Source: an uncultured Gammaproteobacteria bacterium (GTDB lineage: Bacteria; Patescibacteriota; Microgenomatia; UBA12405). From it: a DNA stretch of 64,000 nt. Shown one piece after another: positions 2,741-63,945 of this stretch (its first letter is position 1; every line of letters begins with the position of its first letter). The position numbers and the translations under genes were made by a program. The notes beneath the pieces were generated by a model. It had not been told where the DNA came from. It did no database searches and worked only from the letters and a program-made list of their open reading frames with translations. The stretch spans positions 20,105-84,104 of the forward strand of contig CAYUZS010000004.1 of the NCBI GenBank assembly GCA_964448705.1, read 5' to 3'.

Positions 2741-3075
2741 TTATTAATTAATTTCAACAATTCTTCTCTATCATCATTTTTATCGGCCTTAACCGTAAAT
2801 TGATGTTGGCACCCCAAACATTTATATTGAATTTTATAATCTCCTTTTTCATATAATACTCTCAGTGGTTCCATCATTTTTCGACAAGTACTTGCTCTGT
2901 CGCCGGGGATTTTTTCATCCACATGTCTTCCCCATAAACATTTTGGACAATGATCCGTATATCCGTTTCCTTTTATTTCCATTCCGCATCTGCCGCACTT
3001 AAAGTCCTCCACTTTTCGAACGAAGTTTCTTCTTTCTTCTTTATCAAAATATCGGTCCGAAATTAATTTCTTCAT
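2737..3075 (-). CDS. RNHCP-domain zinc-ribbon protein
   Basis: Cys pairs 'CGRCG', 'DHCPKC', 'CLGCQ'. The 'YTDHCPKCLWGRHVD' block matches my recollection of the RNHCP (PF12647) signature. Confidence 0.5.
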   Translation of the reverse strand: MKKLISDRYFDKEERRNFVRKVEDFKCGRCGMEIKGNGYTDHCPKCLWGRHVDEKIPGDRASTCRKMMEPLRVLYEKGDYKIQYKCLGCQHQFTVKADKNDDREELLKLINN

Positions 3076-17800: not shown

Positions 17801-18533
17801 TTGGTTTTTCATTAAGAATCGTTTCTGTTGCAAAAGTAATTTCCTTTATTAAATCGTTGTCTTCGATTTGTGAATTCTTTAATAGCTTATTAACTTTTTC
17901 TCTTTTTGTATTTTTTTCGCCGCCTTCATCCTCAATCTCAACAATTTTTTTAAATATTTTTTCTACCTCTTTCTTGTCAGCTTCTTTGGGTTCTATTTTT
18001 TTAAACCGTTCTTTCAAAACTTCTTCCTTTTTTATCGGTGTTTTGTTTGTTTCTAGTTTTGCTTTTTCTAGTTTTTCCAGCTCAATTTTCCTTTCAATAA
18101 TTCTTTGGATATCTTCAATCCTTACCCGTCTTAAGAGTAGATTATTTTTGATTAATTCCTCCGCTTTAATAATTTCCTTTTCTAAATCATGTTTATCTAA
18201 TTCTTCAAGGAGTGTTTTTAAGTCTTGTTGGTTTAATGCCCGGCTTTCTAATTTTTGACCTTTTATCTCTGCCTCATCAATCTTCTCTTTTATCTCCAAG
18301 TCTTCAATAATTGAACTCAGTTTTACAGATTCTGATTCTAATAATCGGTTATAGATTTCGTTTACATTAAGTGGATTAAATTCATTTACAATTCCTTGTT
18401 CTTCGTACCATTTTCTTATTATTCTGGAGAGATTAGGGTTATCGTTTAAGGTTTTTCCATTCTTTATCAGTTCCTTAAGACTTCCAAACAGCCTTACGTT
18501 TAATTTTTCTAATTCGGCATCTGTTATTTCCAT
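14886..18533 (-). CDS. 1215-aa T4SS-associated multidomain protein: K/E-rich coiled-coil N-region, Gly/Ala-rich polytopic TM core (VirB6/TrbL-like by architecture), Cys-rich ectodomain, C-terminal C39_2-like papain-fold peptidase/cell-wall hydrolase domain
   Basis: 'GCGPTSVSMMAR' aligns to the 'GCEVTSLAM' catalytic-Cys region of C39_2/YvpB-type peptidases; 'GGHFVLGVAVNNGKIVTYDPY' aligns to the His block. Multiple hydrophobic Gly/Ala helices in the centre. Confidence 0.5.
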   Translation of the reverse strand: MEITDAELEKLNVRLFGSLKELIKNGKTLNDNPNLSRIIRKWYEEQGIVNEFNPLNVNEIYNRLLESESVKLSSIIEDLEIKEKIDEAEIKGQKLESRALNQQDLKTLLEELDKHDLEKEIIKAEELIKNNLLLRRVRIEDIQRIIERKIELEKLEKAKLETNKTPIKKEEVLKERFKKIEPKEADKKEVEKIFKKIVEIEDEGGEKNTKREKVNKLLKNSQIEDNDLIKEITFATETILNEKPINKEASERVNTLLIAEAKIQQNVGDKINKESIEKIAEKIKETSFTENSIEENSVKISKIIESEKINDRNTSEEIIKIANDTWSRVDTEEKISQITEEIVLQIKTETNISETKTKQIGELVKERVVAKFDDPETKLNDSTVKIEKSSEKVELEKEDSLVQKIQKIVGIDDNKKTTIEKIIEKGEVMVENTMIKEVEFQGNTQKERSPSERTNKVIAIDRYRAEKVEEKIYDELIEKGVIKEEAKDMAALVRKIQFPEKEESTTLSQYKEKSVLKRNGYPESKIVSEQARIIKNLVRSPIKISENIERINKISEKLEGSKSLGQLGSVAKILSKNPKLVKSLERLQNIVQFQDRISTAIGGISTQIGNILHIEALKDFGIRLATKFGGETVGAMATQIASLGLEGGIKNIIGQLATKGTVTAVKAGAATAAKGAATAGLSAAGVVGGLPTALIMLGFSVIKKAGSLIKKGFEKFSESIGLSSVKTKVWLQDNFGKGFGGFLHWAGTLAGVFLGLPAILGAGSILIVAWVVPAVLGAIIGLNMITATTVSPLVAPKGTTGSCVKITGTSNGGQINCNQNAPENAVAGVDKANFISKANAWKTGKNYSQECYNDTVNRALCAGINPTYALWVWIHESGASNYSTGEVDDFGVSSINKPNDYNEQINAFLKLNPASACINDPRIGGDYWLAFSANFLNGDCDPDKLNPAGVTPRQYKGFIEEQWSWISSAPLPDSIQVTPGGQNCGDIGNSSSSGGDNTYTYVDENGDSWLCENGETDQNISFDPNAPGLTGVVVEGECSVSDKAYETKQCDPEWGSTPLNGGGTICSAGCGPTSVSMMARIKNGQMKPPVIIFSQGSAYSSMGGEGSSLLQAKQELAKMFGSSAVAYDAVTQGCDEKAIAKWICEGKVVMILADYYRNSNLALGGHFVLGVAVNNGKIVTYDPYYPIRTPFDGTQAYGYAHNIRGCLTVEASAIK

Positions 18534-18555
18534 TTGATTGATTATACCAATCTTA

Positions 18556-42993: not shown

Positions 42994-43042
42994 ATCATTC
43001 AGGTATCACGTGAAGTACTCTATATACGAATCAGTAGAAAAT

Positions 43043-43094
43043 TAGCGGCGAACCATTGATTTGTAGTGAGTTCATCAAACTATGCAGTTAGAAC
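43043..43094 (+). repeat. repeat family C, copy 1 (TAGCGGCGAACCATTGATTTGTAGTGAGTTCATCAAACTATGCAGTTAGAAC)
   Basis: About 85% identical to copy 2 at 51290-51341. A short form lacking the central roughly 24 nt is at 52341-52372. Confidence 0.7.
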
Positions 43095-43140: not shown

Positions 43141-43863
43141 TTATTTGTTGGCGACAACTTCTATAACATGATCCTCCCGGGGAGAAATTTCTCTCCGCAT
43201 AAAATCCTTGTATAGTCTTTCTTGATATTCAGTAATTTCATCCACTTTCAAGCCTGCTTTTTTTAGATGTTCACGTATCGTAAATGGTGTGTGGAAATAT
43301 CTTGAACCAGTTCCTTCAATTGTACCGTCGGCTCTTCTATAAGAAACAGTTGTCAACCTTGTTTCAGGATCGTAGCTATTATTTGGGTCGTTCTTATTAA
43401 TATTTTTTTCTGACCTGACCACAATAAAAATTTTGCCATTTGGTTTGAGTGATTTATTAAACCCTGCTAAAACCACATCCAAATCTTTGGCTGATAAATA
43501 ATGAAGCACAAGTCTAGCGTAAATAAAATCAAAATAATTAGCAGGATAATTCCATTCACTCTTCAGATCTTCATCTTTTGTTTCAATTTGATTTTCAAGC
43601 CCTACTTGTCGGATTACTTCTCTAGCAAACTCCAACCCTTTTTTATCAATCGTGGTGGCAATTATTTTTCTATTTGGATTTGCTCTTGCCATTCTAATTT
43701 CAGCAAAGCCAGCAGTACTAATTCCTGGACTAAAAACCATCAAATCAGTATCTCTTATCCGTGCTAATCCTCGTTCCTCGCTGGTTGAAGGTTTTGCGCC
43801 TAATTCGTCAAGAATTTCGATTTTCACATGACAATTATACTTCACTTTATTTGACAGAATCAA
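43141..43863 (-). CDS. class I SAM-dependent methyltransferase
   Basis: 'DLMVFSPGISTAGFAEI' motif-I-like, 'KPNGKIFIV' motif; 240 aa. Confidence 0.6.
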   Translation of the reverse strand: MILSNKVKYNCHVKIEILDELGAKPSTSEERGLARIRDTDLMVFSPGISTAGFAEIRMARANPNRKIIATTIDKKGLEFAREVIRQVGLENQIETKDEDLKSEWNYPANYFDFIYARLVLHYLSAKDLDVVLAGFNKSLKPNGKIFIVVRSEKNINKNDPNNSYDPETRLTTVSYRRADGTIEGTGSRYFHTPFTIREHLKKAGLKVDEITEYQERLYKDFMRREISPREDHVIEVVANK

Positions 43864-43873
43864 GAAAAACTAA

Positions 43874-43912
43874 ATTGTCACGTTAACGAGCGAAGCAGGT
43901 AAGTCAGGAACC
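43874..43912 (+). repeat. repeat family A, copy 1 (ATTGTCACGTTAACGAGCGAAGCAGGTAAGTCAGGAACC)
   Basis: 35/39 identical to copy 2 at 51765-51803; shares the core AGCAGG..GTC(T/A)GGAACC with family B. Confidence 0.7.
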
Positions 43913-43944
43913 TTTTGTCCGGACAACGTTATCGATTTACTGTT

Positions 43945-44442
43945 TTAGTTAACCACTTCAAGTTTCTTGGGAATTATGTCAAGTTTGTCGACATTAGGAA
44001 CTGTTTTTGTTCTCATCATTTCTACAATTAACTCCCGATATTCGGTTAACAGGATTCTTGTACCTGGAGTAAGGTTAAGTTTTACTGCCTCATCGATGGT
44101 AAACCAACCAATTTCTTGGCCTTCACCTGGTCCTAAAACAAATTTTGATTCCTCATTCTTATCGACAAAAACTACATATATCCAAACATTTTCGCCTAGT
44201 GAACCCTTAGTTTTTGTTATTAATTTAAAATCCTTTAGTTCGTAACTTACTTCTTCTTTAACTTCTCTAATCAAACCTTGTTCCGGAGTCTCACCTTCCT
44301 CAATACCACCCCCAACTAATTGCCAACAGTCCGGTGAACGAATAATTGGAATATTATCCCGGTGAAATAACAACGTTTTATTGGGACTCAGGATAATGAT
44401 TTTGGCACCGTCTTTAGATTTCATATTTCTTCCTCTTAACAA
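43945..44442 (-). CDS. Nudix hydrolase
   Basis: Nudix box 'GGGIEEGETPEQGLIREVKEEVS'. Confidence 0.8.
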   Translation of the reverse strand: MLRGRNMKSKDGAKIIILSPNKTLLFHRDNIPIIRSPDCWQLVGGGIEEGETPEQGLIREVKEEVSYELKDFKLITKTKGSLGENVWIYVVFVDKNEESKFVLGPGEGQEIGWFTIDEAVKLNLTPGTRILLTEYRELIVEMMRTKTVPNVDKLDIIPKKLEVVN

Positions 44443-44517
44443 TTAATTCATCCCACAAGCATTCGTTCACCTTCAATTTTAACATTACTATAGACTATTA
44501 TTTCATTAACACCACCC

Positions 44518-44619
44518 GAGTGGAGTAGGTGAGTCTGGAACTTTTATATCTTTATAGCCCTATATCTTATTATACCTTCCTTTGTAGCTAAATTAGACAA
44601 ATAAGACATTATAAAAAAG
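44518..44619 (+). repeat. repeat family B, copy 1 (diverged, about 75% to B2/B3)
   Basis: GAGTGGAGTAGGTGAGTCTGGAAC...TAGCTAAATTAGACAAATAAGACATTATAAAAAAG; collinear with B2/B3. Confidence 0.6.
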
Positions 44620-44670
44620 AGTCTCTAAGATAACGATATTGAGTGAACAATATGATATCTCAATAATTTT

Positions 44671-45141
44671 CTATATTATTTCAAACTCTTCCAATAACTT
44701 CTTCATCTTCTCTATCTGTTTGGGAAATATAAGATAAGTAGGGAGGTCTTTTGGATAAACCCATTTAATTGCTCTAATTTCATCTTCTTGGATACCTAAT
44801 TCACTTTCTTTGCCTGTAAATTTAACAAAAAATTGTTTTCTCTCTTGTCCTCGAAATACCGGCTTGTTGTCTTTAATCTTTTGATTTATTAATTCATCCG
44901 ACCATTCATAGCAGTCTCTTAATTCACTGGCTTTGATCACTTCAAATTTATCAATTCCCAACTCTTCACTTAATTCTCTGATAACTGCTACCTCCGGTTT
45001 TTCACCTTCTTCAATCCCTCCACCGGGAATATCCCATTCATTATCTTTATAGCTACATTTTTGGACTATCAAAATCCGCCCAGGCTTATCCATTATTACA
45101 GCACTAGTACTTTGTCTGTAAGTTAAGTTATCACGGTTCAT
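44671..45141 (-). CDS. Nudix hydrolase
   Basis: Nudix box 'GGGIEEGEKPEVAVIRELSEELGI'. Confidence 0.8.
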   Translation of the reverse strand: MNRDNLTYRQSTSAVIMDKPGRILIVQKCSYKDNEWDIPGGGIEEGEKPEVAVIRELSEELGIDKFEVIKASELRDCYEWSDELINQKIKDNKPVFRGQERKQFFVKFTGKESELGIQEDEIRAIKWVYPKDLPTYLIFPKQIEKMKKLLEEFEII

Positions 45142-45614
45142 TTTGATTTCAAACTATTGTCAAAAGTCTGTATCCAACCATCCCATTTTTCATTATTCAT
45201 CTCTACTTCTTCAAAATTGTTGTCAGTAAACTTTGAAATGAAATTCAACCAAAACATATGAGCATTCGGATTTTCTCTAATCTGCCTATTCTCCCATTTT
45301 CCAGGGAATTGGTTAAATACTAATTTGGCTGCCTCTGACCCGATTCCGTTATTCCGAAATTCTTTTTTAACATAAAACTCGGAAATGGTATTTCCTTCCG
45401 TTAAAATCAGTAGGTATGAGTTTATTAAGGCAAACCCAGCAATCTTCCCATCGACTTTTATAAAATATGGATACCTATTTGGTTTTTCCCAATAAGAATC
45501 TAGGTACTTATACTCTTCCGCTTTGTCACCAATAATCTCTCTTTCATAGTCCCAAAGCATATCCCTTAGAATATTTTTATCTTTAATATCAATTTGTTCT
45601 AAATTGACTTCCAT
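45138..45614 (-). CDS. GNAT-family N-acetyltransferase
   Basis: 'ISEFYVKKEFRNNGIGSEAAKLVF' is GNAT motif A; 4-nt overlap with the downstream Nudix gene. Confidence 0.6.
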   Translation of the reverse strand: MEVNLEQIDIKDKNILRDMLWDYEREIIGDKAEEYKYLDSYWEKPNRYPYFIKVDGKIAGFALINSYLLILTEGNTISEFYVKKEFRNNGIGSEAAKLVFNQFPGKWENRQIRENPNAHMFWLNFISKFTDNNFEEVEMNNEKWDGWIQTFDNSLKSK

Positions 45615-45634
45615 AAATAATTATAGCCCAAATA

Positions 45635-46192
45635 TTGGTATATAATTATTCAGAATTATCCGAAGAATACTTCATGATCAACCAATCTATTTTAACCACC
45701 ATAAACTGGCATGGCAATAAAGTCACCTACACCTGGATCCCTACTACTAAAATTAAAAAGTACCAACCCATCCGAAACGTGATTGGTCTTTGTCTAAACG
45801 ATAATCAAGAAGTTCTAATTTGCCGTGAAACTGAAGAAGAAGGTTGGAAGTTACCCGGAGGTCGCCCTGAAGATAATGAAACTCCAATTGAGACATTAAA
45901 ACGGGAGTTAATGGAGGAAGCTGATATTGAAGTAAACAATATAAAAGCTATCGGAACCCAACGTGTCGATTTTCCTAATAATCCAAAACAATCAGAAGGT
46001 GATTTGTTCTACCAAGTACGATATTTTTGTAAAATAGAAAAGATGTTTCCTCAAACTGTAGATCCTGATACTGGAGTGCTTTACGATCGAAAATTTGTGC
46101 CTCTTAGACAGTTGAACAACTACCTAAAGTGGGGAAAAATCGGAGATGCCATAATCAATAAAGTATTAGTAATTGAAAATATAAATGACTAA
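45635..46192 (+). CDS. Nudix hydrolase
   Basis: Nudix box 'GGRPEDNETPIETLKRELMEEADI'. Confidence 0.75.
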   Translation: MVYNYSELSEEYFMINQSILTTINWHGNKVTYTWIPTTKIKKYQPIRNVIGLCLNDNQEVLICRETEEEGWKLPGGRPEDNETPIETLKRELMEEADIEVNNIKAIGTQRVDFPNNPKQSEGDLFYQVRYFCKIEKMFPQTVDPDTGVLYDRKFVPLRQLNNYLKWGKIGDAIINKVLVIENIND

Positions 46193-46721
46193 TAAAACCC
46201 GAGACTGGCAAGAACTCTCCCGGGAAGAAGCTTTTAGAAAATATTCCCGTAAAATTGAGAAAGTAATTTTCAAACTACCCAACGGTAAAGAAACAGATTT
46301 TTACATTAAAAAAGAAGGTCCAACTGCTAGTGTTTTAGCCTTAACATCCGATAATCAAATAATTATTGCCAAGCAATATCGCCCTGGACCAAAAAAAATC
46401 CTGATGGAACTCCCGGGTGGTTTTGTTGACCCAAACGAAGCACCTGAAGTAACCATAAAACGTGAGTTACTGGAAGAAACTGGTTATGAAGGTGATATAA
46501 AGCTAGTTACCACCTGTCTTGATGATGCCTACTCTACGATGGAAAGATATTGTTTTGTTGCTACTAATTGTAAAAAAGTCAAAGAAATTGAGAATGGAGA
46601 GGACGAATTTACCGAGTTAGTTTTAGTTTCACTTAAAGAGTTTAAACAAATTCTTCGAAGTGGCCAAATGACCGATGTGGAAGTCGGATTCTTAGGGTTA
46701 GATTATTTAGGACTACTTTAA
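46185..46721 (+). CDS. Nudix hydrolase (ADP-ribose pyrophosphatase-like)
   Basis: Nudix box 'ELPGGFVDPNEAPEVTIKRELLEETGYEG'. Confidence 0.8.
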   Translation: MTNKTRDWQELSREEAFRKYSRKIEKVIFKLPNGKETDFYIKKEGPTASVLALTSDNQIIIAKQYRPGPKKILMELPGGFVDPNEAPEVTIKRELLEETGYEGDIKLVTTCLDDAYSTMERYCFVATNCKKVKEIENGEDEFTELVLVSLKEFKQILRSGQMTDVEVGFLGLDYLGLL

Positions 46722-47207
46722 ATGAGTCACCAAAGATTAATTATTCTCATGGGCTTGCCGGGTTCGGGCAAATCATACGTCGCGTCACATCTCCAACAAA
46801 AATATGGTTTTATTACATTGTCCGGTGAGGACATTGCTACCAAGTTATTTGGAACTGAAAAACTGTCTGGTCAACAATATGCTCAAGTTTATAAAACAGT
46901 CCGGCAAAAAGCTTCTGAACTACTACAACAGGGATCTTCTGTGATAATTGATGGTACAAATCTCAAGAAACAATTTCGTCAACAAATTTATGACGAAGTT
47001 AAATGCGACCAAACAATTTTGATATATCTCAAAACCGACGATAATGTCGCTATGGATCGAATTTCAAAAAGAAAAAATTCTTGTTCCTCTGAAACATATC
47101 AAGCATTTAAGAACCAGATAGAGGAACCATTTCCGAAAGAAAATGCATTTATTTTGATCTCAGACAACCAGTTATTAGACAACATTGACAAAATAATAAA
47201 TGGATAA
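46722..47207 (+). CDS. P-loop nucleotide/nucleoside kinase-like protein (AAA_33-like)
   Basis: Walker A 'LMGLPGSGKSYVA'; 161 aa. Start abuts the Nudix stop. Confidence 0.55.
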   Translation: MSHQRLIILMGLPGSGKSYVASHLQQKYGFITLSGEDIATKLFGTEKLSGQQYAQVYKTVRQKASELLQQGSSVIIDGTNLKKQFRQQIYDEVKCDQTILIYLKTDDNVAMDRISKRKNSCSSETYQAFKNQIEEPFPKENAFILISDNQLLDNIDKIING

Positions 47208-47523
47208 GAATTTATTAGATAAATTAATTACCGAGTACAAACAACTCTTCGAAAACGTTTGGGAATTTGGAGGTGGTTATGGTTTTCGCTTTCATCATGG
47301 GGTTCGGGTTATGAAATATTGTCAAAAAATTGCTATGCTTCCCAGATTTAAAGACGAAAACATAAGTATTGAGGCTTTGCTAATTGCTGCCCTTTTCCAC
47401 GATATTGGTAAAATCGAAGCAATCGATAAAAATGGTCAATTAGTTTATGGTAATTATGGTGGTATTAGTCATGATGCTTTGGGAGCCAAAATCGCACCTA
47501 AATATTTTTGTTTAAAATACTAG
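47200..47523 (+). CDS. short HD-domain protein (possibly truncated)
   Basis: 'RFHHGVRV' and 'LFHDIGKI' His/Asp motifs of the HD phosphohydrolase fold; only 107 aa. Confidence 0.45.
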   Translation: MDKNLLDKLITEYKQLFENVWEFGGGYGFRFHHGVRVMKYCQKIAMLPRFKDENISIEALLIAALFHDIGKIEAIDKNGQLVYGNYGGISHDALGAKIAPKYFCLKY

Positions 47524-47626
47524 TTGACTTCGTGTTTTCTTCGGTTATTATTATAAATAATAAAGCAAATAAAATAAATATCTCCTTGACCCATCAAGAT
47601 ATTAACAATATACTGACTATATTAAT

Positions 47627-48400
47627 ATGAAATTAAATATTATTTATAATAAATCTTCTGAAAAAATGACTGAAATAGAAGATAAAACTATCCAACTTGT
47701 GGTTACTTCTCCACCATATAACATAGACATCAAATATGGAAACAAATGGAAGGGGAGAAAAATAATTTCGTCTAAAGGTGATAAATATAAAGATAATATT
47801 TCTGAGGAGAACTATAGGAAAATGTTGAAAAAGGTTTTTGAAGAATCAAAGAGAGTTCTTAAAGATAATGGTTCAATCTTTCTGAATATGAAAACCAGAT
47901 ATGATGGAGACCAATTAATACCACCATTTTGGGTATTAGATTATTTTAAAGATATGTTTTTAAAAAATATCATCATTTGGAATTTTGACTGGGGTGGCTC
48001 AACTGAAAAAAGGTTTTCCTCAAGATACGAGTTTGTTTTTTTCTTTACAAAAAACAAAAAAAACTGGACCTTTAATTTGAATGATATTAAAATTCCTAGT
48101 TTAAATTATCGTCCAGACAGATATAAAACCCAACTAAAAAACCCAACTGATGTTTGGAAAATTCCACTAGTTAGTGGTAACTCTCTAGAGAGAACATCAC
48201 ACCCAGCACAATATCCAGAAAAACTAATTGAGAGAATTATTAAAGTATCAACAAACGCAGGTGATATTGTCTTAGATCCCTTTATTGGAAGTGGCACTAC
48301 AGCCGTGGTTGCTAAAAAATTGAAAAGACATTATTTAGGCTATGATACATCTTTAGATTACATTAATATTGCAAAAAATAGATTAAAGAATGAGTTTTAA
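47627..48400 (+). CDS. DNA amino-methyltransferase (N4C/N6A, beta class)
   Basis: Motif IV 'VVTSPPYN' is N-terminal; motif I 'LDPFIGSGTTAVVA' is C-terminal. Confidence 0.8.
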   Translation: MKLNIIYNKSSEKMTEIEDKTIQLVVTSPPYNIDIKYGNKWKGRKIISSKGDKYKDNISEENYRKMLKKVFEESKRVLKDNGSIFLNMKTRYDGDQLIPPFWVLDYFKDMFLKNIIIWNFDWGGSTEKRFSSRYEFVFFFTKNKKNWTFNLNDIKIPSLNYRPDRYKTQLKNPTDVWKIPLVSGNSLERTSHPAQYPEKLIERIIKVSTNAGDIVLDPFIGSGTTAVVAKKLKRHYLGYDTSLDYINIAKNRLKNEF

Positions 48401-48424
48401 TATAAAGTTATATAAATAATTAAT

Positions 48425-49204
48425 ATGCAAAAATATTACTTTGGCGATTGTAGAGATTTGATAAAAAATATTAAAGATAATTCTATAAATTTAGTGGTTA
48501 CATCTCCTCCTTATAATCTTCGTAAAAAATATGGTAAATATAGCGATGATGTAACTATAGAAGAATGGAAAAAATTAATATTTGAGACTACCAAGGAAGT
48601 AGTCAGAGTTTTGGCTCCAAATGGTAGTTTTTTTATAAATATATCCCCCATCCCTCAAAAAAAAACAAAAGAAATTATTCCATTAGACGCCCTTGCTTAT
48701 TCTATTGGGAAAGAGTGTGGATTATATCTTAGAAATTCTATTATATGGACTTTTAATAATATGCAAAATTGTTCAAACAGACTGAGTGGCAGATGGGAAA
48801 GTATTCTTTGGTTTGTTAAAGATATTAATAATTATGTTTTTAATTTAGATAAAGTGAGAGTTCCTTATATAACAAAAGGAGATAAAAGACTTGATCCAAA
48901 TGGAGGTAGAAACCCAACAGATGTTTGGTATTTTGATCGTGTAAATAATATGACTAAGAAAAAATTGGGGATAACGGATGCACCTTGTGTTTATCCAGTA
49001 CCAATGATAGAAAGAATATTAAAAATGTCTACAAAAGAAGGGGATAAAGTGTTAGATCCATTTTTAGGTAGCGGAACTACATTGGTGGCATGTTCTCGAT
49101 TAAAAAGAAATGGAATTGGTTTTGAATTAGATGAAAAATTCAAAACCATTATAGAAAAAAGGCTTAAAACCGAAACTGTTGTTCAATCTAGAATTGATTA
49201 TTAA
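48425..49204 (+). CDS. DNA amino-methyltransferase (N4C/N6A, beta class), second of tandem pair
   Basis: 'VVTSPPYNL' and 'LDPFLGSGTTLVAC'. Confidence 0.8.
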   Translation: MQKYYFGDCRDLIKNIKDNSINLVVTSPPYNLRKKYGKYSDDVTIEEWKKLIFETTKEVVRVLAPNGSFFINISPIPQKKTKEIIPLDALAYSIGKECGLYLRNSIIWTFNNMQNCSNRLSGRWESILWFVKDINNYVFNLDKVRVPYITKGDKRLDPNGGRNPTDVWYFDRVNNMTKKKLGITDAPCVYPVPMIERILKMSTKEGDKVLDPFLGSGTTLVACSRLKRNGIGFELDEKFKTIIEKRLKTETVVQSRIDY

Positions 49205-50310
49205 ATAGCATTAACACGAAAAACGTCATGGTTATGAAAAGATAATTGTGCCCTTGCGTTATAGGTTTCCTTACTAGAATTACCACTTTGGTGCAAAAGA
49301 ATATTATTAAGAATAATTTCCATTTCAGAAACTGAAAATATTGGTGTCGAATATTTTTTATGTAAATTAAGTATTTGAATAATTGTGTCTGGTTTAATTC
49401 GGTGAAGTTTTTTTTCAATATAATCAAAATAGCCGGATTGTGCGGTACCTTTTGTATTTCCGTCTATAGATCTGTTCATTGGTGTTGAATTGTCAACAGA
49501 AATATTTTCTCCGTTGTATATTTTTTTAATAAAATTACTATTTTTAATACCACCACATCCTAAGAAATGTATAAAATCGAGAGATTTAAATGGTATTGAA
49601 TTGTTTAACTGTTTAACTGTTTGTTCAATAGATTTGCCTTCTCTAGTTAATCCACCGACTGCAATTTTATTTGGAATATATTTTAATAAACCAAGAAATT
49701 TTTTAATCTGTTGAGGTGACCATGATCCATTTATTGTTGTTGCTATGTGTCTTTGGTCATTACTTAAAAGTAAATAAAGTTTATTTGCATATATCGCATT
49801 GCGTTCAATTAAAACATCTTGATGTGTACCATTAAAAATACCTGTTTCAGTTTTTTCTGATTGTGTTCTTATTTTGAATGGATTAGGAATGTCAAAAGAA
49901 ACTGCTATATCAATTTTTGATGTTATTATGACTTTTGCATATTTTTCTAAAATTTTTTCACTATCTACAAGATTATTAAACTCATTAATAATCCCTCCTG
50001 GATCAGATGTTTTGTTATGTACTATGTAGTTTACTATTTTAGAAGTTCCAGAATCCAAAAATAATTTTGTCTCTGATAAAACAGAATCATCAGAAACATT
50101 ATTTGCTAGCCATGATCTCATATTAGTTGTGTTTGACCATATTGATGTTTTAATTAAACTATTGATTGATGCGTGATTAAAAAATAAATCCCCAAATTTT
50201 AGTAAAACTTTATTTTTTAAGACCATTGGCATTTTGTTTTTCCAAATTCTTTTTACCCCATTCCAATCCCCGGCTCCACCACCAGCACTGTAAATATAAT
50301 AATAATTCAT
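49201..50310 (-). CDS. TGT-fold protein (queuine/archaeosine tRNA-ribosyltransferase / DpdA-like base-exchange enzyme) lacking the C-terminal zinc cluster
   Basis: 'LFLDSGTS' matches the TGT 'LTDSGGFQ' Asp block; 'IAVGGLTREG' matches 'YAVGGLAVGE'; 'HFLGCGG' matches 'LMGVGKP'. The two latter motifs are 32 residues apart here versus 33 in E. coli Tgt. No CxCxxC...H motif. Confidence 0.5.
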   Translation of the reverse strand: MNYYYIYSAGGGAGDWNGVKRIWKNKMPMVLKNKVLLKFGDLFFNHASINSLIKTSIWSNTTNMRSWLANNVSDDSVLSETKLFLDSGTSKIVNYIVHNKTSDPGGIINEFNNLVDSEKILEKYAKVIITSKIDIAVSFDIPNPFKIRTQSEKTETGIFNGTHQDVLIERNAIYANKLYLLLSNDQRHIATTINGSWSPQQIKKFLGLLKYIPNKIAVGGLTREGKSIEQTVKQLNNSIPFKSLDFIHFLGCGGIKNSNFIKKIYNGENISVDNSTPMNRSIDGNTKGTAQSGYFDYIEKKLHRIKPDTIIQILNLHKKYSTPIFSVSEMEIILNNILLHQSGNSSKETYNARAQLSFHNHDVFRVNAI

Positions 50311-51104
50311 GATTTTAATTTATTTATTAATTCTTCAAAATTACCCATTTCGTGCAATGGTGGATAGAATTTTTCTGAATAACCAACCTTTGCAATTATT
50401 TTATAATTAGACATTTTAAAATCTCCATCTCTTTTTTTTCTTATAAATTCAATTGGATTATTATTTAAATAATCTGATATTTGCTCATTAGTATTAAAAA
50501 ATATCCCTTTTAGGTCAGGGAAATCGACCCAATGAACATAATAGACAGGTCTTTCTAATTCTGCATCTATTTCTATAAGCTGTTTTTTTATTTTTTCTGT
50601 ATCTAGTGTAATAGATCCTTCATAAGGTTCTCTATTTAAAAGTTTCCAAGATAGCATAAATGGAGCATTATGATATTTTAATTCTATATAAGCTTTTATA
50701 TTTCTCGTTTTGTCTAAAACTTGTATATCTGGTAACCTTCTGTTTTTAATATCAGCTCTCATCGCAAATATTTTTTTTGAATTTAGATAATCAATGAAGG
50801 ATTCTTCAAATTGTTTTCCTAATTGAACATCTAGACCTTTTATGGATTTGTTTCGTGGAGTCAAATAAAATTTTCTCGCTCTTTTATATAAATCTTCTAG
50901 GTCTGGAACCTCTTTATACAATTGAGGTGTATTTTTTATTAAAGATCTATCAGCAATATCTTCGTACATTTTTTTATAACATAGCTGATTAATATCTTCG
51001 AATTTTAGTTGATTTTCAAAAACAGGAACATTTTTTAAATATTCGATTTTAATTTTTTCAGTAAACTTAAGTAATTCTCTGTAACTATCTATGCTTTTAT
51101 CCAT
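50307..51104 (-). CDS. PD-(D/E)xK-fold nuclease; putative restriction endonuclease
   Basis: 'RLPDIQVLD...IKAYIELKYH' gives a PD...ExK arrangement. Convergent with the two MTases; 4-nt overlap with the TGT-like gene. Confidence 0.45.
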   Translation of the reverse strand: MDKSIDSYRELLKFTEKIKIEYLKNVPVFENQLKFEDINQLCYKKMYEDIADRSLIKNTPQLYKEVPDLEDLYKRARKFYLTPRNKSIKGLDVQLGKQFEESFIDYLNSKKIFAMRADIKNRRLPDIQVLDKTRNIKAYIELKYHNAPFMLSWKLLNREPYEGSITLDTEKIKKQLIEIDAELERPVYYVHWVDFPDLKGIFFNTNEQISDYLNNNPIEFIRKKRDGDFKMSNYKIIAKVGYSEKFYPPLHEMGNFEELINKLKS

Positions 51105-51289
51105 AATACTAACTTCTTTAATTAGAATAAATTAGGCAATTATACCTCTCTTAAGATCAAAAAATGTTTTTTTAAAAGTAAACTATCAATTTATTTATTA
51201 CCTAAGTACGTGAGTTTGGAACAAATCAAAATTAATTTATGGAGTATTACCGCATATATTACATGAAAAGATACGGAAAAAATGAAATT

Positions 51290-51341
51290 TAGCGGCGTAC
51301 CATTGATTTATTGTGAGTTCATCGAACTACCCAGTTAGAAA
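51290..51341 (+). repeat. repeat family C, copy 2
   Basis: TAGCGGCGTACCATTGATTTATTGTGAGTTCATCGAACTACCCAGTTAGAAAC. Confidence 0.7.
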
Positions 51342-51764: not shown

Positions 51765-51803
51765 ATTGTCACGACAACGAGCGAAGCAGGCAAGTCTGGA
51801 ACC
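51765..51803 (+). repeat. repeat family A, copy 2 (ATTGTCACGACAACGAGCGAAGCAGGCAAGTCTGGAACC)
   Basis: See copy 1. Confidence 0.7.
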
Positions 51804-52339
51804 TAGTAATTTTTTCCTTTACTACTATGATTTTTTTGACTTTCAAAATACGCTTGGCTAATTGATAAAGCAACTGTCATTTCGTTTGACCTAGGTTTAA
51901 TTTGGTTCCAATCAACCTTTATTACTGGATTAAATCCAGCTAAGTATTTTATTGCCCCAGTTTGGCTTTGGTCATGAGGATTTTCGTAAAAAATCCAAAA
52001 ACCAAAATCTTTCGACAGTTCATCTCCATAATAACCTGATGTAAGGTTTGTTCCACACTCTAAAAATTTATTACCATTCACATTAAGTCTCTTTATTTCA
52101 ATATATATAGTTTCTTTGCCCGGTGAATCGGATTCAATCCTTCCCAATTCTATATACCCTCCATTAGCCAAAGGAATTATCATCGACTTTGTCCCGTCAA
52201 TCTCTCTACCATCATTATCAATTGTTACCGGAAGCAAGGCTCTTTCTTTCCAAATACCACTAGCAACCATATAAGCTCTACTCTGAGTAGATCTTTTGAC
52301 TGGATCAAGATCAACTATATTGGTATTATTTTCTTTCAT
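51803..52339 (-). CDS. hypothetical protein
   Basis: ORF only; bounded by repeat A2 and the short C repeat. Confidence 0.3.
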   Translation of the reverse strand: MKENNTNIVDLDPVKRSTQSRAYMVASGIWKERALLPVTIDNDGREIDGTKSMIIPLANGGYIELGRIESDSPGKETIYIEIKRLNVNGNKFLECGTNLTSGYYGDELSKDFGFWIFYENPHDQSQTGAIKYLAGFNPVIKVDWNQIKPRSNEMTVALSISQAYFESQKNHSSKGKNY

Positions 52340-52702: not shown

Positions 52703-52746
52703 TTATAACAACAAAAAACATCAGTAGAATAGGGTAATTATATCTT

Positions 52747-52860
52747 GGCGGAGCAGGTGGGTCTGGAACCTTTCTATCCTTATAACTCTGTTCCCAAACC
52801 TCTGTCTTATTCTACCCCTTCTCTGAAGCTAAATGAGACAAATGAGACAGTATAAAAAAG
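52747..52860 (+). repeat. repeat family B, copy 2 (114 nt)
   Basis: GGCGGAGCAGGTGGGTCTGGAACCTTTCTATCC...GAAGCTAAATGAGACAAATGAGACAGTATAAAAAAG. About 95% identical to B3 apart from a 12-14 nt insertion. Confidence 0.75.
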
Positions 52861-52954
52861 GGAATGGTCGATTTTAACAGGTTCTCGATTTGTAAGCCTA
52901 TAAGATGTATAATTGTTACCGATATTGTGGTAAATCACATGAAATAAAAAAATA

Positions 52955-58827: not shown

Positions 58828-58930
58828 GGCTATATGTTATCACCCTAAAGAATCTTTCAAAATATCCAGACATGAAAAAAGATGAATTGCATTTCGGTAA
58901 AAAGTTTTTCTACGGATTCCTTCGGATTCA

Positions 58931-59030
58931 GCGGAGCAGGTGGGTCTGGAACCTTTCTATCCCTATAACCCTATGTCTTATCCTACCCCTTCTTTGAAGC
59001 TAAATGAGACAAATAAGACACTATAAAAAG
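58931..59030 (+). repeat. repeat family B, copy 3 (100 nt)
   Basis: GCGGAGCAGGTGGGTCTGGAACCTTTCTATCCCTATAACC...GAAGCTAAATGAGACAAATAAGACACTATAAAAAG. Confidence 0.75.
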
Positions 59031-59093
59031 ATACGTGGTAAAACAATGATATGGTTTGACACTCAAATTTAATATAGACAACAGTTGGAATAT

Positions 59094-61232
59094 TTATGCT
59101 GTAACCTTGGGTTTGTTGATAAAATCCATAAATTTAGTCATTTCAAGTTCCTTATTCTGAAACCAGTTTGTTGACCAAATTCTATATACAACATAACCCA
59201 TATGTTCCAGTTCTTTTTGTCTGTACATATCATACGCATAGGCTTCTTCTGATTGGTGGTACGACTTCCCGTCACACTCTAAAACATAGTTATGCCCATT
59301 GTACTTTATAACAAAGTCTAATCTGAATCCTCCTACTTTATGTTGCTGTACAACATCTTCCTTTTTGAATTTGTCCAACAATAATTCATATACTTCCTCC
59401 TCAAAAGGAGATTCTGAAAGACCATCATCATCAAATATAAGCTTCGGCTTTTCAAAACTTTGGAGTTTCAGTTCTGACAAAATACCTTCTGCTAGTACAC
59501 TATCTTTGTTTGAAATCGCTTCTGCGTAAGCCAAGTAAGCATACAATATTCCTCTTTTATTATTTCCACCTTCGCCTTTGATTAGTTCGGGATAAGACAC
59601 ATACTTTTCTTTTGGTATTGATGTACAAACATACACTTTATTCTTAGCCCTAGTAATTAAAACATTTAGTAGTTTATATCCCTCAATTCTATTTATTCTT
59701 GCAAAATTCTGAGAAAACTTACCATCAACACCATAACCATAAGTAGTGGAAATGATAATTATGTCCTTTTCGTCACCTTGTATGTTTTCAAGGTTTTTTA
59801 TGAAGAGTCCACTCTCTTTAAGGGCCAAATATTTTGTCAAAAAGTCAGAATCTGACTCTGCTACTTTATTCAAAGACTCGATGATTAAATTTCTTTGGTT
59901 GATATTAAAAGTAGCAATACCGACAGAAGGATACTTATTATTTGTGTTTAGTTGTATTTCATCTTTAATAATTCTGATAATCTCAGCAACCTCTGTAGGG
60001 TTGGTATTAGATTCATATCTGCCGTTCACAGGAATAAATTTTATTGGCGTATATTCTGATAACGCAGGAAAAGAAACTAAGTTTCCACCATAAAAAGCAG
60101 CATTTGAAAATTCAATAAGTGCCGGATGATTAGATCTATAATGATAATCCAAAGATGATTTATTAATATCTCTAAGATTTGAAGCATACTGAAGTAATGA
60201 TTCACTATCTGCTAACTCATCTTGTTCATTGTCATATTCTTCAAACTCATCATGAGCTTCTTCAAAGGTATTATTCGAACTTAAAAAGTAGTTAGAAGGG
60301 GGCATTTGATGCTCATCTCCGGCAATTATTTTATATTGACCTCTAATCAGACATGCGAACGTATCGGATATTCTTAATTGACTAGCTTCATCGAAAATTA
60401 TGACATTAAACAATCCCTGCTTTAGGGGTAATATGGCATTTGCAGCACTTGGATTTGTTAAGATTATCGGGAAAAGAGAAGTAAATAAGTCGAAATCTTT
60501 TTCGATTATCTTCCTTAACGAGTTCTTTGGACCAGAATTATTTTTTCTTAAGTTATAAAGGGTATTAAAGTTACCAGGGTATGAACTTAGTCTCAACCTT
60601 CTTTTAGTGTTCCACTTTGACTTAATCTGTTGGATCTGTTTTTCTTTAAGTTTGTTATATACAACGGATAACTCGACCAACTTCGCATCTGATTTATTGA
60701 AACCCACAGTCGATTTACTGTCGAAGTTTAGGAGTGACTTTTTAAAATACCATGCCATAAACACATTTTTCCAGTTCTCTGTAGGTATTTCTTTTAAAGC
60801 ATTAATGATATTTATTTCTGTTTCTGTTTTATTGTCTGAAAGATAATGCCTCCAATGGTGAAAATTTTCATATGAATCAAAGTTATTAATTACGTTTGTA
60901 ATGTTGTCATATATCGATAAATAATATTTATTTAAAGAATCAAAATCCTTAAAATCAGTATATTTTTTGTATGTGAAGCTATAAATTTTAGTATCAAGCA
61001 AAGTAACTAATTTTGAATCATTAGTGTTCAATTCTTTTTCAATTTTTTCTATTTCTTTAATTTTTTGATATTTTTTATTTAAATTCTCAAGAACACTTAC
61101 TGCATGTTCGTTCAGATCTTTAAAAGATACAAACGTATTTTTTTCAGGAAGTAATTCGATTGATAAGTATTTCTTTATTAAAGGCGCATCTTCCTTAAGC
61201 GATTTTAATGTGTCTACAATTTCTTGTCTCAA
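59094..61232 (-). CDS. SF1 (Upf1/DNA2-like) helicase C-terminal region fused to DUF559/Vsr-like endonuclease-fold domain; Walker A absent, probably a 5'-truncated gene remnant
   Basis: Motif II 'VIIFDEASQ'; 'LNVLITRAKNKVYV' motif VI; C-terminal 'DGKSYHQSEEAYAYDMYRQKELEHMGYVVYRIWSTNW'. No GxxxxGK[ST] anywhere in the 270 aa before motif II. The ORF starts 15 bp from the IS end. Confidence 0.5.
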   Translation of the reverse strand: MRQEIVDTLKSLKEDAPLIKKYLSIELLPEKNTFVSFKDLNEHAVSVLENLNKKYQKIKEIEKIEKELNTNDSKLVTLLDTKIYSFTYKKYTDFKDFDSLNKYYLSIYDNITNVINNFDSYENFHHWRHYLSDNKTETEINIINALKEIPTENWKNVFMAWYFKKSLLNFDSKSTVGFNKSDAKLVELSVVYNKLKEKQIQQIKSKWNTKRRLRLSSYPGNFNTLYNLRKNNSGPKNSLRKIIEKDFDLFTSLFPIILTNPSAANAILPLKQGLFNVIIFDEASQLRISDTFACLIRGQYKIIAGDEHQMPPSNYFLSSNNTFEEAHDEFEEYDNEQDELADSESLLQYASNLRDINKSSLDYHYRSNHPALIEFSNAAFYGGNLVSFPALSEYTPIKFIPVNGRYESNTNPTEVAEIIRIIKDEIQLNTNNKYPSVGIATFNINQRNLIIESLNKVAESDSDFLTKYLALKESGLFIKNLENIQGDEKDIIIISTTYGYGVDGKFSQNFARINRIEGYKLLNVLITRAKNKVYVCTSIPKEKYVSYPELIKGEGGNNKRGILYAYLAYAEAISNKDSVLAEGILSELKLQSFEKPKLIFDDDGLSESPFEEEVYELLLDKFKKEDVVQQHKVGGFRLDFVIKYNGHNYVLECDGKSYHQSEEAYAYDMYRQKELEHMGYVVYRIWSTNWFQNKELEMTKFMDFINKPKVTA

Positions 61233-61650: not shown

Positions 61651-62436
61651 TTGGGTGTTTCTAAAGCCAATTACTTTTACAAATCAATTCAGCCATCAAA
61701 AGACGAGATATTAAAAGAACAGATTTTATCAGTTCTGGAATCAAATCCTAGTTATGGTCACAGAAGGATTGCTCTAGCTCTGAGTATCAACAAAAAGAGA
61801 GCTAAAAGAGTCATGAAGCTTTATGGGATTAAACCTTACAAGCGGAAAGCCAGATGGAGAAAGCGAAGAGATGAAAGACGGCCGGAGGCCGTCTTCTCCA
61901 ATCAAATTAAAGGTTCTTTCCCAATTGTCCCCAATCTTACTTGGGTGTCTGATTTTACTTATCTTCGATTTAATTCAAAATTCATTTATCTGGCTACCTT
62001 TATGGATTTGTACACCCGAGAGATTGTAGGCTGGAGTTTAAGTGCTCGCCACACCAAAGATCTAATCATTAACGCTTTCTTTGATGCTTTTGAAAACAAA
62101 GGTGTTCTGCCTAAATTTGTTCATTCGGATCAGGGATCGGAATACAACTGTTTTGAATACACCAAACTAATCAGTGATTTAGGAGTCACTGTATCCATGA
62201 GTAAAAAAGCTTCTCCCTGGGAAAACGGTTATCAGGAATCATTTTATGATAATTTCAAAACTGATTTAGGATTGGAGTTTGACCGATTTAATTCTGTTGG
62301 TGAATTTGTCGAAGCCATTCATCAACAAATTAATTACTACAATCAAAGAAGAATCCACACCACTCTGAAGATGTCCCCGGTACAGTTTAAACAGCAATAC
62401 CTTTTACGCCAAATTCAATTTCACAAATCGGTCTAA
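61651..62436 (+). CDS. IS3-family transposase OrfB (rve/DDE integrase core)
   Basis: 'WVSDFTY', 'HSDQGSEY', 'ENGYQESF' DDE-region blocks. Its frame is open back to 61543, overlapping the orfA tail. Confidence 0.8.
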   Translation: MGVSKANYFYKSIQPSKDEILKEQILSVLESNPSYGHRRIALALSINKKRAKRVMKLYGIKPYKRKARWRKRRDERRPEAVFSNQIKGSFPIVPNLTWVSDFTYLRFNSKFIYLATFMDLYTREIVGWSLSARHTKDLIINAFFDAFENKGVLPKFVHSDQGSEYNCFEYTKLISDLGVTVSMSKKASPWENGYQESFYDNFKTDLGLEFDRFNSVGEFVEAIHQQINYYNQRRIHTTLKMSPVQFKQQYLLRQIQFHKSV

Positions 62437-62454: not shown

Positions 62455-63359
62455 GAATCAACGTCAAAAGAGGTCTTCGAGCCAAATGCGAAGCCGGATG
62501 GCGCCCAGGATCAGCTCCTGTGGGCTATATCAATCGGCTCACTGAAAATCGAATTGCCTATATTGATCTAGACCCAGAACGTGCCCCGATCGTTAAAGAA
62601 ATCTTTGAAAAAGTAGCCTATCAAGGTCATAGTGGCAGAACTATAAAATATTGGCTAGATAAAAGTGGATTCATAACTAGAGCTGGCAAAAGAATGGCTA
62701 TTAGTGAGGTTTATCGGGTATTAAGAAAACACTTCTACTACGGAGAGTTTGAATTTCCCGAAGACAGTGGGCATTGGTATCACGGCAAACATCCACCGAT
62801 AATAACCAAAGAACTTTATGATTTAGCTCAAAAACAAATTGCAGTTCCACCCAAAGAATGGAACAAAAAGTCTTTCCCGTTTAAGGGATTATTCAAATGC
62901 GGTCATTGCGGAGGTTCGATTACAGCCGAGGACAAATACAAGAAATTAATAAGCGGTAAATTCCGCCGTCATGTATATTATCACTGCGCTAGAACCATCG
63001 ATTATGATTGCGACCAACCCTACATTACCGAAGATGATTTGGTCCGGCAATTATTAGCAAAAATTAACGAAATTGAATTTAATCAAAAAGCCGTTGATGA
63101 AAAAATGAAACATGAGATTGAGCGATATCATCGCCTTCGATCCGATGTACTGCACCAAGAAATGTTTGAAAGGCAACTTGAAGTAATGGATTATCCAATC
63201 ATTAAAGAAAAATCACCAGAAGAGCGCATTAGAGGATATGTGATCCATGTTTTGAAAACTGGATTCTCAGAAGAAAAACAGGAAATACTGGCATTATTTA
63301 AGACCAGATTCATTTTAAAAGATAAGCAAATAATTAAAACCGAAGAAAACCCGATTTGA
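62455..63359 (+). pseudogene. large serine recombinase, 5'-truncated (recombinase domain + zinc ribbon + coiled-coil retained; resolvase catalytic domain missing)
   Basis: Frame is open from the IS boundary: '...INVKRGLRAKCEAGWRPGSAPVGYINRL' is the resolvase-to-recombinase linker. The zinc ribbon is 'CGHCGGS...YYHCAR'. No resolvase domain lies on either side of the IS. Confidence 0.6.
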
Positions 63360-63713: not shown

Positions 63714-63858
63714 CTTATATTCATAATACACCAAAGAAAACATCCCCTCGAGGACATGGGTCTGGAACGAAATCAAAGCTAAACAGGAACAAATGAATTA
63801 TTGGTCAGGGGAGTAGCACCACCTATATTACATGGAATGATAGGGAAAAAACGATAAT

Positions 63859-63945
63859 TGGCGGAGGGAGGGGGATTCGAACCCCCGAGCCTTTTACAGC
63901 GCACGCTTTCCAAGCGTGTGGAATGAACCACTATCCGATCCCTCC
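63859..63945 (-). tRNA. tRNA-Ser (anticodon GGA), class II with long variable arm, CCA encoded
   Basis: Reverse complement folds by hand: acceptor GGAGGGA/TCCCTCC, anticodon stem CACGC/GCGTG with loop TTGGAAA, variable arm about 15 nt, T-arm GGGGG-TTCGAAT-CCCCC, then GCCA. Confidence 0.8.

Follow-up and report, generated by a model that had tools for sequence, protein, structure and literature searches.

A four-Nudix gene cluster in a tRNA-Ser integration hot spot of Woesebacteria-like Patescibacteria: a candidate array for nucleotide housecleaning and salvage

We analysed a 64,000-nt stretch of DNA (hereafter the window; positions 20,105 to 84,104 of contig CAYUZS010000004.1, GenBank assembly GCA_964448705.1) in which four Nudix hydrolase genes, an acetyltransferase gene of the GNAT family, a P-loop kinase gene and a fragment of an HD-domain gene are packed into positions 43945-47523. 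From gene content, relatives and surroundings, all read from sequence, we consider it somewhat better than an even bet (a probability of about 0.55) that this array is a long-resident accessory cluster for nucleotide housecleaning and salvage, lodged in a tRNA-Ser integration hot spot of a Woesebacteria-like clade of Patescibacteria. Patescibacteria-type organisms depend on scavenged nucleotides, and the Nudix set together with the kinase (accompanied in relatives by HD, HD_4, CYTH, His-phosphatase and YfbR/dNK-type genes) would clear or recycle nucleotide derivatives.

The seven open reading frames (ORFs) described in an initial annotation of this DNA agree in coordinates and strand with the ORF list for 42-50 kb, and its count of four Nudix genes (N1 to N4), two on each strand, was correct (Table 1). 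The junctions are tight: N2 and the acetyltransferase gene (GNAT) overlap by 4 nt, N3 and N4 by 8 nt, N4 and the kinase gene (KIN) abut, and KIN and the HD fragment (HD') share the 8 nt (47200-47207) already noticed at that stage. The genes thus form two divergent operons, one leftward (GNAT followed by N2, with N1 further on) and one rightward (N3, N4, KIN and HD). All four Nudix ORFs, as well as GNAT and KIN, are intact in the window, although the true starts of two of them are likely internal to the listed frames: ATG at 44424 for N1 (159 aa; its orthologue has 160 aa) and ATG at 45674 for N3 (172 aa; about 40 homologues are called at 168-177 aa).

The Nudix box (G-x5-E-x7-REUxEE) is kept in N1, N2, N3 and N4, with its terminal GU represented by SY in N1 and by DI in N3; complete boxes with catalytic glutamates and significant matches to Pfam NUDIX (PF00293; E 1e-16 to 1e-20) establish superfamily membership for all four. 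As no further box was found in any frame of the window and all four lie inside the array, the array is not a chance pattern. Similarity between the paralogues is limited to the box region (30-60 % identity over 26-73 residues), and comparison with characterised subfamilies (a check proposed by the initial annotation) gave a different leaning for each: MutT-like for N1, RppH/Ap4A-hydrolase-like for N2, lineage-specific for N3 and ADP-sugar pyrophosphatase-like for N4. The first description of the genes as diverged, and not recently duplicated, therefore stands. The four are best seen as ancient paralogues, which probably act on different nucleoside-diphosphate-X substrates. None of the four proteins reached an NCBIfam equivalog cut-off, and for this reason the subfamily labels are leanings and not assignments.

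For N1, the best NCBIfam model was that of MutT (TIGR00586), at 41.6 bits against a cut-off of 97.9, which falls short of an 8-oxo-dGTPase assignment, and the best match in the Protein Data Bank (PDB) was a MutT protein (3hhj, E 2.6e-7). N2 aligned over its full length with the RNA pyrophosphohydrolase model NF001938 (85.8 bits; with a cut-off of 116, RppH equivalence is not reached) and matched the structures of a diadenosine tetraphosphate (Ap4A) hydrolase (1f3y, 2.4e-13) and of Escherichia coli RppH (4e-11). N4 likewise had full-length PDB matches, to ADP-ribose pyrophosphatases (8wv3, 6.6e-17; 5c7q NudF, 2e-16; 1v8i; residues 12-174 align to the first two), and its NCBIfam scores were 42.8 bits for NudE (cut-off 169) and 25.5 bits for TIGR00052 (cut-off 79.55). 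N3 had only generic sequence matches; at 43-83 % identity its homologues fall into 42 clusters, of which the few with a source name are labelled Woesebacteria, Patescibacteria or 'bacterium'. The fold was tested for N3 only: an AlphaFold2 (AF2) model (predicted local distance difference test score, pLDDT, 92.9) has the Nudix α/β/α fold with an N-terminal β-hairpin extension, and of its 484 Foldseek matches in the PDB at E <= 0.001 the top 50 are Nudix enzymes, led by Bacillus subtilis RppH (4jzv, E 1.7e-8) with Ap4A, ADP-ribose and MutT enzymes close behind. The set thus shares boxes, profile matches and, for N2, N4 and the N3 model, whole-domain similarity with the MutT, RppH/NudH-Ap4A hydrolase and NudF/NudE enzymes, but differs from them in staying below the equivalog cut-offs and in the lineage-restricted, hairpin-bearing N3. 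On these leanings, N4 would fit ADP-ribose or ADP-sugars, N2 Ap4A or RNA 5' (pyro)phosphates, and N1 (damaged) nucleoside triphosphates.

The best specific matches of KIN were the Pnkp1 kinase domain (PDB, 1.7e-5) and the PHROG 'polynucleotide kinase' family (2.5e-13), with PSTK and gluconate kinase also among its PDB matches. The likeness to the kinase domains of Pnkp and T4 Pnk is qualified by comparable E-values for gluconate, adenylate and CMP kinases, and by the lack of a fused phosphatase or ligase domain in KIN.

The array is not confined to this genome. By protein look-ups and locus scans the cluster was found in about 13 distinct lineages, and the order of orthologues matches that of the window in at least 12 related contigs (Patescibacteria/Woesebacteria-like). 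One of the compared loci (numbered L002 onwards) reproduces both order and orientation (L002; identities of 85 % for N1, 77 % for N2, 86 % for N3, 92 % for N4, 69 % for KIN and 83 % for HD), and partial sets with the order kept occur in L007, L011, L012/17/18, L013, L015, L016, L019, L020, L021 and L022. Orthologues of N2 are 70-79 % identical (L002, L007 and L011), those of N4 90-92 % and those of KIN 69-72 %; the GNAT orthologues of L011 (66 %) and L022 (80 %) both adjoin N2. In L025 (N3 68 %) four Nudix genes, KIN and a His-phosphatase gene stand in permuted order beside a type I restriction-modification (R-M) system and AAA_15, and in L023 (N3 50 %) N3 stands by itself among core genes. 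The constant core of the cluster consists of Nudix, kinase and HD genes. The variable slots are filled by a fifth Nudix gene, His_Phos_1, HD_4, CYTH, two further GNAT types, a glyoxalase-fold protein, two α/β-hydrolases, an APH-family kinase and a 209-aa unknown protein. L007 additionally has YfbR-like, dNK-like and NDK-like genes close to the cluster. We count it in favour of a housecleaning and salvage role that the genes swapped in relatives are of the same enzyme kind as the cluster itself. A literature search on Nudix clusters in the candidate phyla radiation (CPR)/Patescibacteria found nothing relevant. One of the relatives (L011, CAZEXG010000003.1) is labelled 'uncultured Gammaproteobacteria'; it carries the Patescibacteria-type cluster and the same insertion sequence (IS) as the window, its tRNA-Ser is 81 % identical to that of the window, and the label of this bin is probably wrong.

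Between the window and its relatives, at synonymous divergence (dS) of at least 1, the ratios of nonsynonymous to synonymous divergence (dN/dS) were 0.08 for N1, 0.08 for N2, 0.08-0.12 for N3 and 0.03 for N4, values that indicate strong purifying selection on all four. The GC content of the cluster, overall and at third codon positions (GC3), lies inside the distribution of the genes left of 42.1 kb. Considering this native composition and the conservation over dS >= 1, any acquisition of the cluster must be old. The initial annotation had named, as the finding that would speak against its own reading, a set of simple housekeeping paralogues in syntenic core positions; the conserved order agrees with that picture, whereas the varying membership and a location in a variable, tRNA-linked tract instead of a core position do not.

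The cluster lies on the 3' side of a tRNA-Ser gene, in a tract that would have received integrating elements repeatedly. A minus-strand tRNA-Ser gene whose 3' end points towards the cluster lies right of it in the window and in L002, L007, L011, L015 and L018 (at distances of 1-17 kb) as well as in L023 (0.8 kb from N3), and the tRNA-Ser of the window is 100 % identical to the one downstream of the cluster in L007. By comparing the window with these loci we found a conserved non-coding element of ~110 nt (hereafter EL), searched for with nhmmer (the copy at 44517-44622 being scored with a model built from six other copies). Three strong and two weak copies were recovered from the window, none of them in its first 43 kb (0-43 kb). 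The gap between N1 and N2 holds one of them instead of a remnant of a glyoxalase or other cluster gene, none of which was found there. In relatives, EL stands just outside the leftmost cluster gene (L002, L007, L011, L013 and L017/18) or right of the kinase (L015). Over its first ~25 nt (TGGCGGAG...GGAACC) EL is similar to the 3' end of tRNA-Ser, and a conserved arm with GAGACAAATGAGACAGTATAAAAAAG follows; the similarity is significant for the best-kept copies (equalled in 0 of 500 shuffles for L013 and in 7 of 500 for L018) and weaker for other copies. In all seven pairs EL lies on the 3' side of the neighbouring tRNA-Ser and in the same orientation, and L018 offers the mirrored case (two reversed copies beside a plus-strand tRNA-Ser).

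There was no support for EL as a tRNA (ARAGORN returned nothing at default, 90 % and 80 % settings, and a single pseudo tRNA-Ser(gga) at 70 %) or as a structured small RNA (no Rfam match at E <= 1; RNAalifold -7 kcal/mol, with almost no covariation). In preference to an RNA, the repeats look like attachment-site (att) scars of a family of integrating elements. Taken together, the EL series and the IS and large-serine-recombinase remnant beside the tRNA let the 43-64 kb tract be read as the product of repeated integration at tRNA-Ser. The same IS and recombinase remnant are found next to tRNA-Ser in L011, which suggests that the two lineages share one IS-disrupted integrase. L011 carries this rve-type IS twice (11.6-12.9 kb and 16.3-17.7 kb), with 86 % protein identity to that of the window.

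Like tRNA-linked islands that grow by tandem accretion, the tract is closed at one end by an intact tRNA-Ser, beside which lie an IS and a serine-recombinase remnant, and it contains directly oriented repeats that start with ~25 nt of the tRNA-Ser 3' end (one of them, in the orientation of the tRNA, at the distal boundary), with foreign cassettes in between. It differs from such islands in that the window holds no intact integrase (the recombinase remnant lies behind the IS), the repeats are degenerate to the point that Rfam and default ARAGORN see no tRNA in them, and the cluster genes are native in GC and GC3 and conserved over dS >= 1. No unoccupied tRNA-Ser flank was present among the loci fetched. 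Two further repeat pairs lie in the tract. A 57-bp direct repeat brackets the methyltransferase gene next to N1, the cluster and the inserted cassette described below, and a composite repeat at the far side of that cassette combines the second 57-bp copy with a copy of the sequence just 3' of tRNA-Ser (63810-63859); the same tRNA-flank sequence is found beside the tRNA-Ser of L011. Tested as tRNA fragments, the 57-bp repeats (43037/51284) had no tRNA-like structure and no Rfam match. The two pairs (43037/51284 and 51241/63810) may be junctions of older integration events. A hot spot of this kind would explain the att-like bounding repeats, the gene-by-gene variability among relatives and the damage at the right end of the cluster. 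Also in this tract, between an EL repeat and the IS/recombinase remnant beside tRNA-Ser, a minus-strand gene (59094-61232) encodes a 712-aa helicase (AAA_12) fused to a C-terminal MTES_1575/DUF559 nuclease domain, with a strong PADLOC match to PDC-S37 (341 bits) and a match to Hhe.

That damage concerns the HD gene, which had been listed as a short protein with the advice to look for truncation by comparison with homologues; it is indeed a truncated gene. HD' covers only positions 1-70 of the 116 of the Pfam HD profile, its homologues reach 161-174 aa or more, and intact orthologues of 220 aa occur in L013, L016 and L019. The DNA alignment with five orthologues is good as far as ...GCACCTAAATAT (47505) and breaks sharply at 47506, i.e. 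the gene is cut after codon 102 and the final five codons and the stop derive from inserted DNA. HD' retains the H and HD motifs and lacks the downstream 'KDADRLD' metal-ligand region of the 220-aa orthologues, so that the complete H...HD...D metal-binding set of an HD phosphohydrolase is not present. No significant C-terminal remnant was found anywhere in the window (tblastn with full-length orthologues), and a 'PKY...LWSITAY' stretch near 51.2 kb, considered as the missing 3' half, was rejected by the same search. Damage at this end recurs in relatives: L002 has the HD gene cut beside an IS200/605 transposase, L007 has it frameshifted, and in L012/17/18 KIN is truncated beside a serine recombinase.

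The DNA that begins at the break is a low-GC cassette of four genes: two N4/N6 DNA methylases, a 369-aa protein and a 265-aa ORF. Its GC of 0.26-0.29 and GC3 of 0.15-0.24 lie 2-4 standard deviations below the values of the genes left of 42.1 kb (0.358±0.027 and 0.312±0.042, respectively). The unit recurs in unrelated contexts, namely in L028, where it neighbours a SIR2_2 gene, and in L029, a Saccharibacteria genome; it is homologous to L028 at the DNA level over 47620-51078 of the window. The low GC, the recurrence in unrelated contexts and the DNA homology identify it as a mobile cassette, the arrival of which, with a deletion, destroyed the HD gene; in this genome the insertion would have removed the 3' half.

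Several observations weigh against a resident housecleaning cluster. As no Nudix protein reaches an equivalog cut-off, the proposed substrates are guesses, and N4 reads 'DDAYS', with an Ala where we presume a Pro to be typical of ADP-ribose pyrophosphatases. The outer flanking genes differ between genomes and the membership varies, as would be expected of island cargo too. Genes of mobile or defence type lie near the cluster in several loci (type I R-M, PDDEXK and AAA_15 in L025; DUF2726 in L013; a serine recombinase in L017/18; IS elements in L002 and L011; the cassette in the window). The EL core is also present in two viral contigs of IMG/VR (L026 and L027), one of which carries terminase, ParB-methylase and ribonucleotide reductase (RNR) genes and a Nudix gene 27 bp from EL.

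Another view is closest to the initial annotation, which had taken the array for defence, anti-defence or nucleotide-signal-degrading cargo in mobile DNA: as moron-like genes at the att site of tRNA-Ser-integrating elements or prophages, the cluster would serve to break down or alter immune signals made of nucleotides, or molecules derived from NAD. The neighbourhood does bear marks of mobile DNA (att-like repeats, IS, serine-recombinase remnant, methylase cassette), the cluster does sit between att-like EL repeats and tRNA-Ser, EL accompanies a Nudix gene in a phage-like contig, the cluster has R-M or other defence-type neighbours in the window, L025 and L013, N4 is ADP-ribose-pyrophosphatase-like, and the Nudix proteins and KIN match the PADLOC families PDC-S07 and VakA. 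However, these matches (PADLOC-DB v2) are of generic domain type (30-55 bits to PDC-S07, itself a candidate system, and 33 bits to VakA), so that membership in a specific defence system, with a specific component and its partner genes, was rejected; PHROGs gave generic matches only. No cyclase, TIR, SIR2 or effector partner is encoded in the cluster, and no signal-producing or effector partner in any of its ~13 versions. We also considered the cluster genes as genes of viral contigs and discarded the idea, since N2, N3 and KIN have no relatives in IMG/VR. With defence-island and phage Nudix-HD genes (PDC-S07; PHROG 1198) the array has in common the Nudix domain and the vicinity of R-M and mobile elements, but the similarity ends at the domain level. 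Mobile neighbours, moreover, are to be expected for anything at a tRNA integration hot spot, whereas native composition, purifying selection and order kept at dS >= 1 point to residence, and we regard the cargo interpretation as improbable. The same low standing is given to a bolder variant, in which the Nudix, kinase and HD genes would be a modular cargo array of tRNA-Ser-integrating Patescibacteria elements, bounded and shuffled at EL, and acting on NAD/ADP-ribose-derived or cyclic immune signals or on RNA 5' caps and ends; were this long shot true, ultra-small episymbiotic bacteria or their phages would have a new type of module for counter-defence or for modulating immunity.

The enzymes could instead form a module for processing or repairing RNA ends, in which N2 and perhaps N3 would remove 5' pyrophosphates or caps, KIN would rephosphorylate 5'-OH ends, and HD, His-phosphatase and CYTH proteins would handle 3' or triphosphate ends. 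The RppH leanings of N2 (full-length, in models and structures) and of N3 (top structural match), the polynucleotide-kinase-like and PSTK matches of KIN, and the CYTH, HD and His_Phos_1 genes that join the cluster in relatives all point this way; yet every match is below its family cut-off and near generic Nudix or P-loop scores, neither N4 (ADP-sugar type) nor N1 (MutT type) fits, and a ligase, Hen1, RtcB or other hallmark of RNA repair was seen in no locus, which makes such a module unlikely. A small-molecule detoxification or antibiotic-modification islet, with the Nudix genes as fellow travellers, would account for the three kinds of GNAT, the APH-family phosphotransferase, a nucleotidyltransferase, the glyoxalase/bleomycin-resistance-fold protein and the two α/β-hydrolases among the variable members, as well as for the methyltransferase and ABC exporter that flank the cluster in the window. 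It is hard to reconcile with a constant core that consists of Nudix, kinase and HD genes and not of modifying enzymes, and no protein reached the threshold of a resistance family; we therefore hold it to be rather improbable. Decay, with the genes as now functionless relics of elements integrated long ago, would suit an HD gene disrupted in three independent ways (truncated in the window, by IS200/605 in L002, by frameshift in L007) and the truncated KIN of L012/17/18. GNAT and KIN are nevertheless intact in the window, the four Nudix ORFs have complete catalytic boxes, and dN/dS values of 0.03-0.12 exclude mere decay for the Nudix genes; as an account of the whole array it is very improbable indeed.

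If the housecleaning and salvage reading is right, the array exemplifies how genome-reduced Patescibacteria group diverged Nudix enzymes with other phosphohydrolases, and how a tRNA-Ser hot spot remodels such a group gene by gene. This would be useful for annotation and for picking nucleotide-salvage enzymes, and is not in itself surprising; it would gain weight if the enzymes acted on immune or signalling nucleotides, or if EL were an active recombination site that shuffles single genes.

The inserted cassette, with two DNA methylases and an unannotated protein, is probably a more promising lead than the Nudix array. The 369-aa ORF had no match in sequence searches of PDB, Pfam, NCBIfam or PADLOC, and its fold was revealed by structure prediction only: the AF2 model (pLDDT 92.3, predicted TM-score, pTM, 0.90) is a barrel of the tRNA-guanine transglycosylase (TGT) type, the best PDB match of which is the DNA preQ0 insertase DpdA (7ui4, E 3.8e-7), followed by bacterial tRNA-guanine transglycosylases. 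From reading the sequence we take D86 ('DSG') and D273 ('VDN') to correspond to the catalytic Asp102 and Asp280 of TGT; the Cys-rich zinc site is missing from the sequence. The more than 215 clusters of the family, all named 'hypothetical', have a patchy distribution that includes Saccharibacteria, Clostridia, Bacteroidales and Aliarcobacter, and in the three contexts seen the protein always travels with the 265-aa ORF and the two methylases. No preQ0 synthesis genes were found near the cassette. The cassette may encode a system that resembles R-M or hypermodifies DNA, one component of which has a transglycosylase fold.

Table 1. Features of the Nudix cluster, the inserted cassette and the tRNA-Ser tract (window coordinates unless a compared locus is named)
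Feature	Position	Strand	Basis and remarks
57-bp direct repeat	43037-43093	+	88 % identical to 51284-51340; blastn E 7.6e-14
SAM (S-adenosylmethionine)-dependent methyltransferase flanking N1	43141-43863	-	Pfam Methyltransf_11/25/12
EL, weak copy following N1	43888-43955	+	nhmmer
N1, Nudix hydrolase, weakly MutT-like	43945-44442	-	165 aa; Pfam NUDIX E 1.3e-18
EL, strong copy in the N1-N2 gap, just 3' of N2	44517-44622	+	nhmmer E 3e-20; one end is a degenerate tRNA-Ser 3' end
N2, Nudix hydrolase, RppH/Ap4A-hydrolase-like	44671-45141	-	156 aa; Pfam NUDIX E 1.5e-20
GNAT acetyltransferase	45138-45614	-	158 aa; Pfam Acetyltransf_1 E 1.4e-8
N3, lineage-specific Nudix hydrolase, core gene of the cluster	45635-46192	+	185 aa; Pfam NUDIX E 6e-16
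N4, Nudix hydrolase, ADP-ribose/ADP-sugar pyrophosphatase (NudF/NudE) type	46185-46721	+	178 aa; Pfam NUDIX E 4e-16
KIN, P-loop kinase, AAA_33/KTI12 type	46722-47207	+	161 aa; Walker A GLPGSGKS; Pfam AAA_33 4.4e-20, KTI12 3.6e-15
HD', 5' fragment of HD-domain gene	47200-47523	+	107 aa; Pfam HD E 1e-8
Inserted foreign cassette	47506-51240		right boundary approximate
N4/N6 DNA methylase 1 of cassette	47627-48400	+	Pfam
N4/N6 DNA methylase 2 of cassette	48425-49204	+	Pfam
369-aa TGT/DpdA-fold protein of cassette	49201-50310	-	predicted structure
265-aa partner ORF of cassette	50307-51104	-	
Composite repeat	51241-51340	+	51241-51289 copies 63810-63859 (82 %); 51284-51340 copies 43037-43093
EL, weak copy	51779-51804	+	nhmmer
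EL, strong copy	52744-52863	+	nhmmer E 2e-33; TGGCGGAGCAGGTGGGTCTGGAACC matches, 0 expected by chance
EL, strong copy	58927-59035	+	nhmmer E 7e-33
IS transposase (rve)	61651-62436	+	Pfam
Large-serine-recombinase remnant after IS	62520-63359	+	Pfam; no resolvase catalytic-domain match reported
tRNA-Ser(GGA)	63859-63945	-	ARAGORN; Rfam tRNA 53 bits; 3' end faces the cluster tract
EL copies in relatives	L007 8286-8400; L013 9238-9348; L018 224-344		

The methyltransferase gene that flanks N1 had no counterpart adjoining the cluster in the related loci. In the EL-bearing IMG/VR contig L027 (IMGVR_UViG_3300020195_001307), the stored part has a period of 9117 bp, the unit of which comprises terminase, ParB-methylase, methylase, RNR, PfkB kinase and Nudix genes and EL; the periodicity may reflect a concatemer, a long terminal repeat or an assembly artefact. 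Elsewhere in the window, the gene of an 817-aa VirB4/TraG-type ATPase neighbours that of a 1215-aa protein without any Pfam match (14886-21009), and a DUF4012 protein, of a kind that we presume to be common in Patescibacteria, is encoded at 3072-6047; together they probably belong to the type IV secretion or pilus-like machinery of such bacteria.

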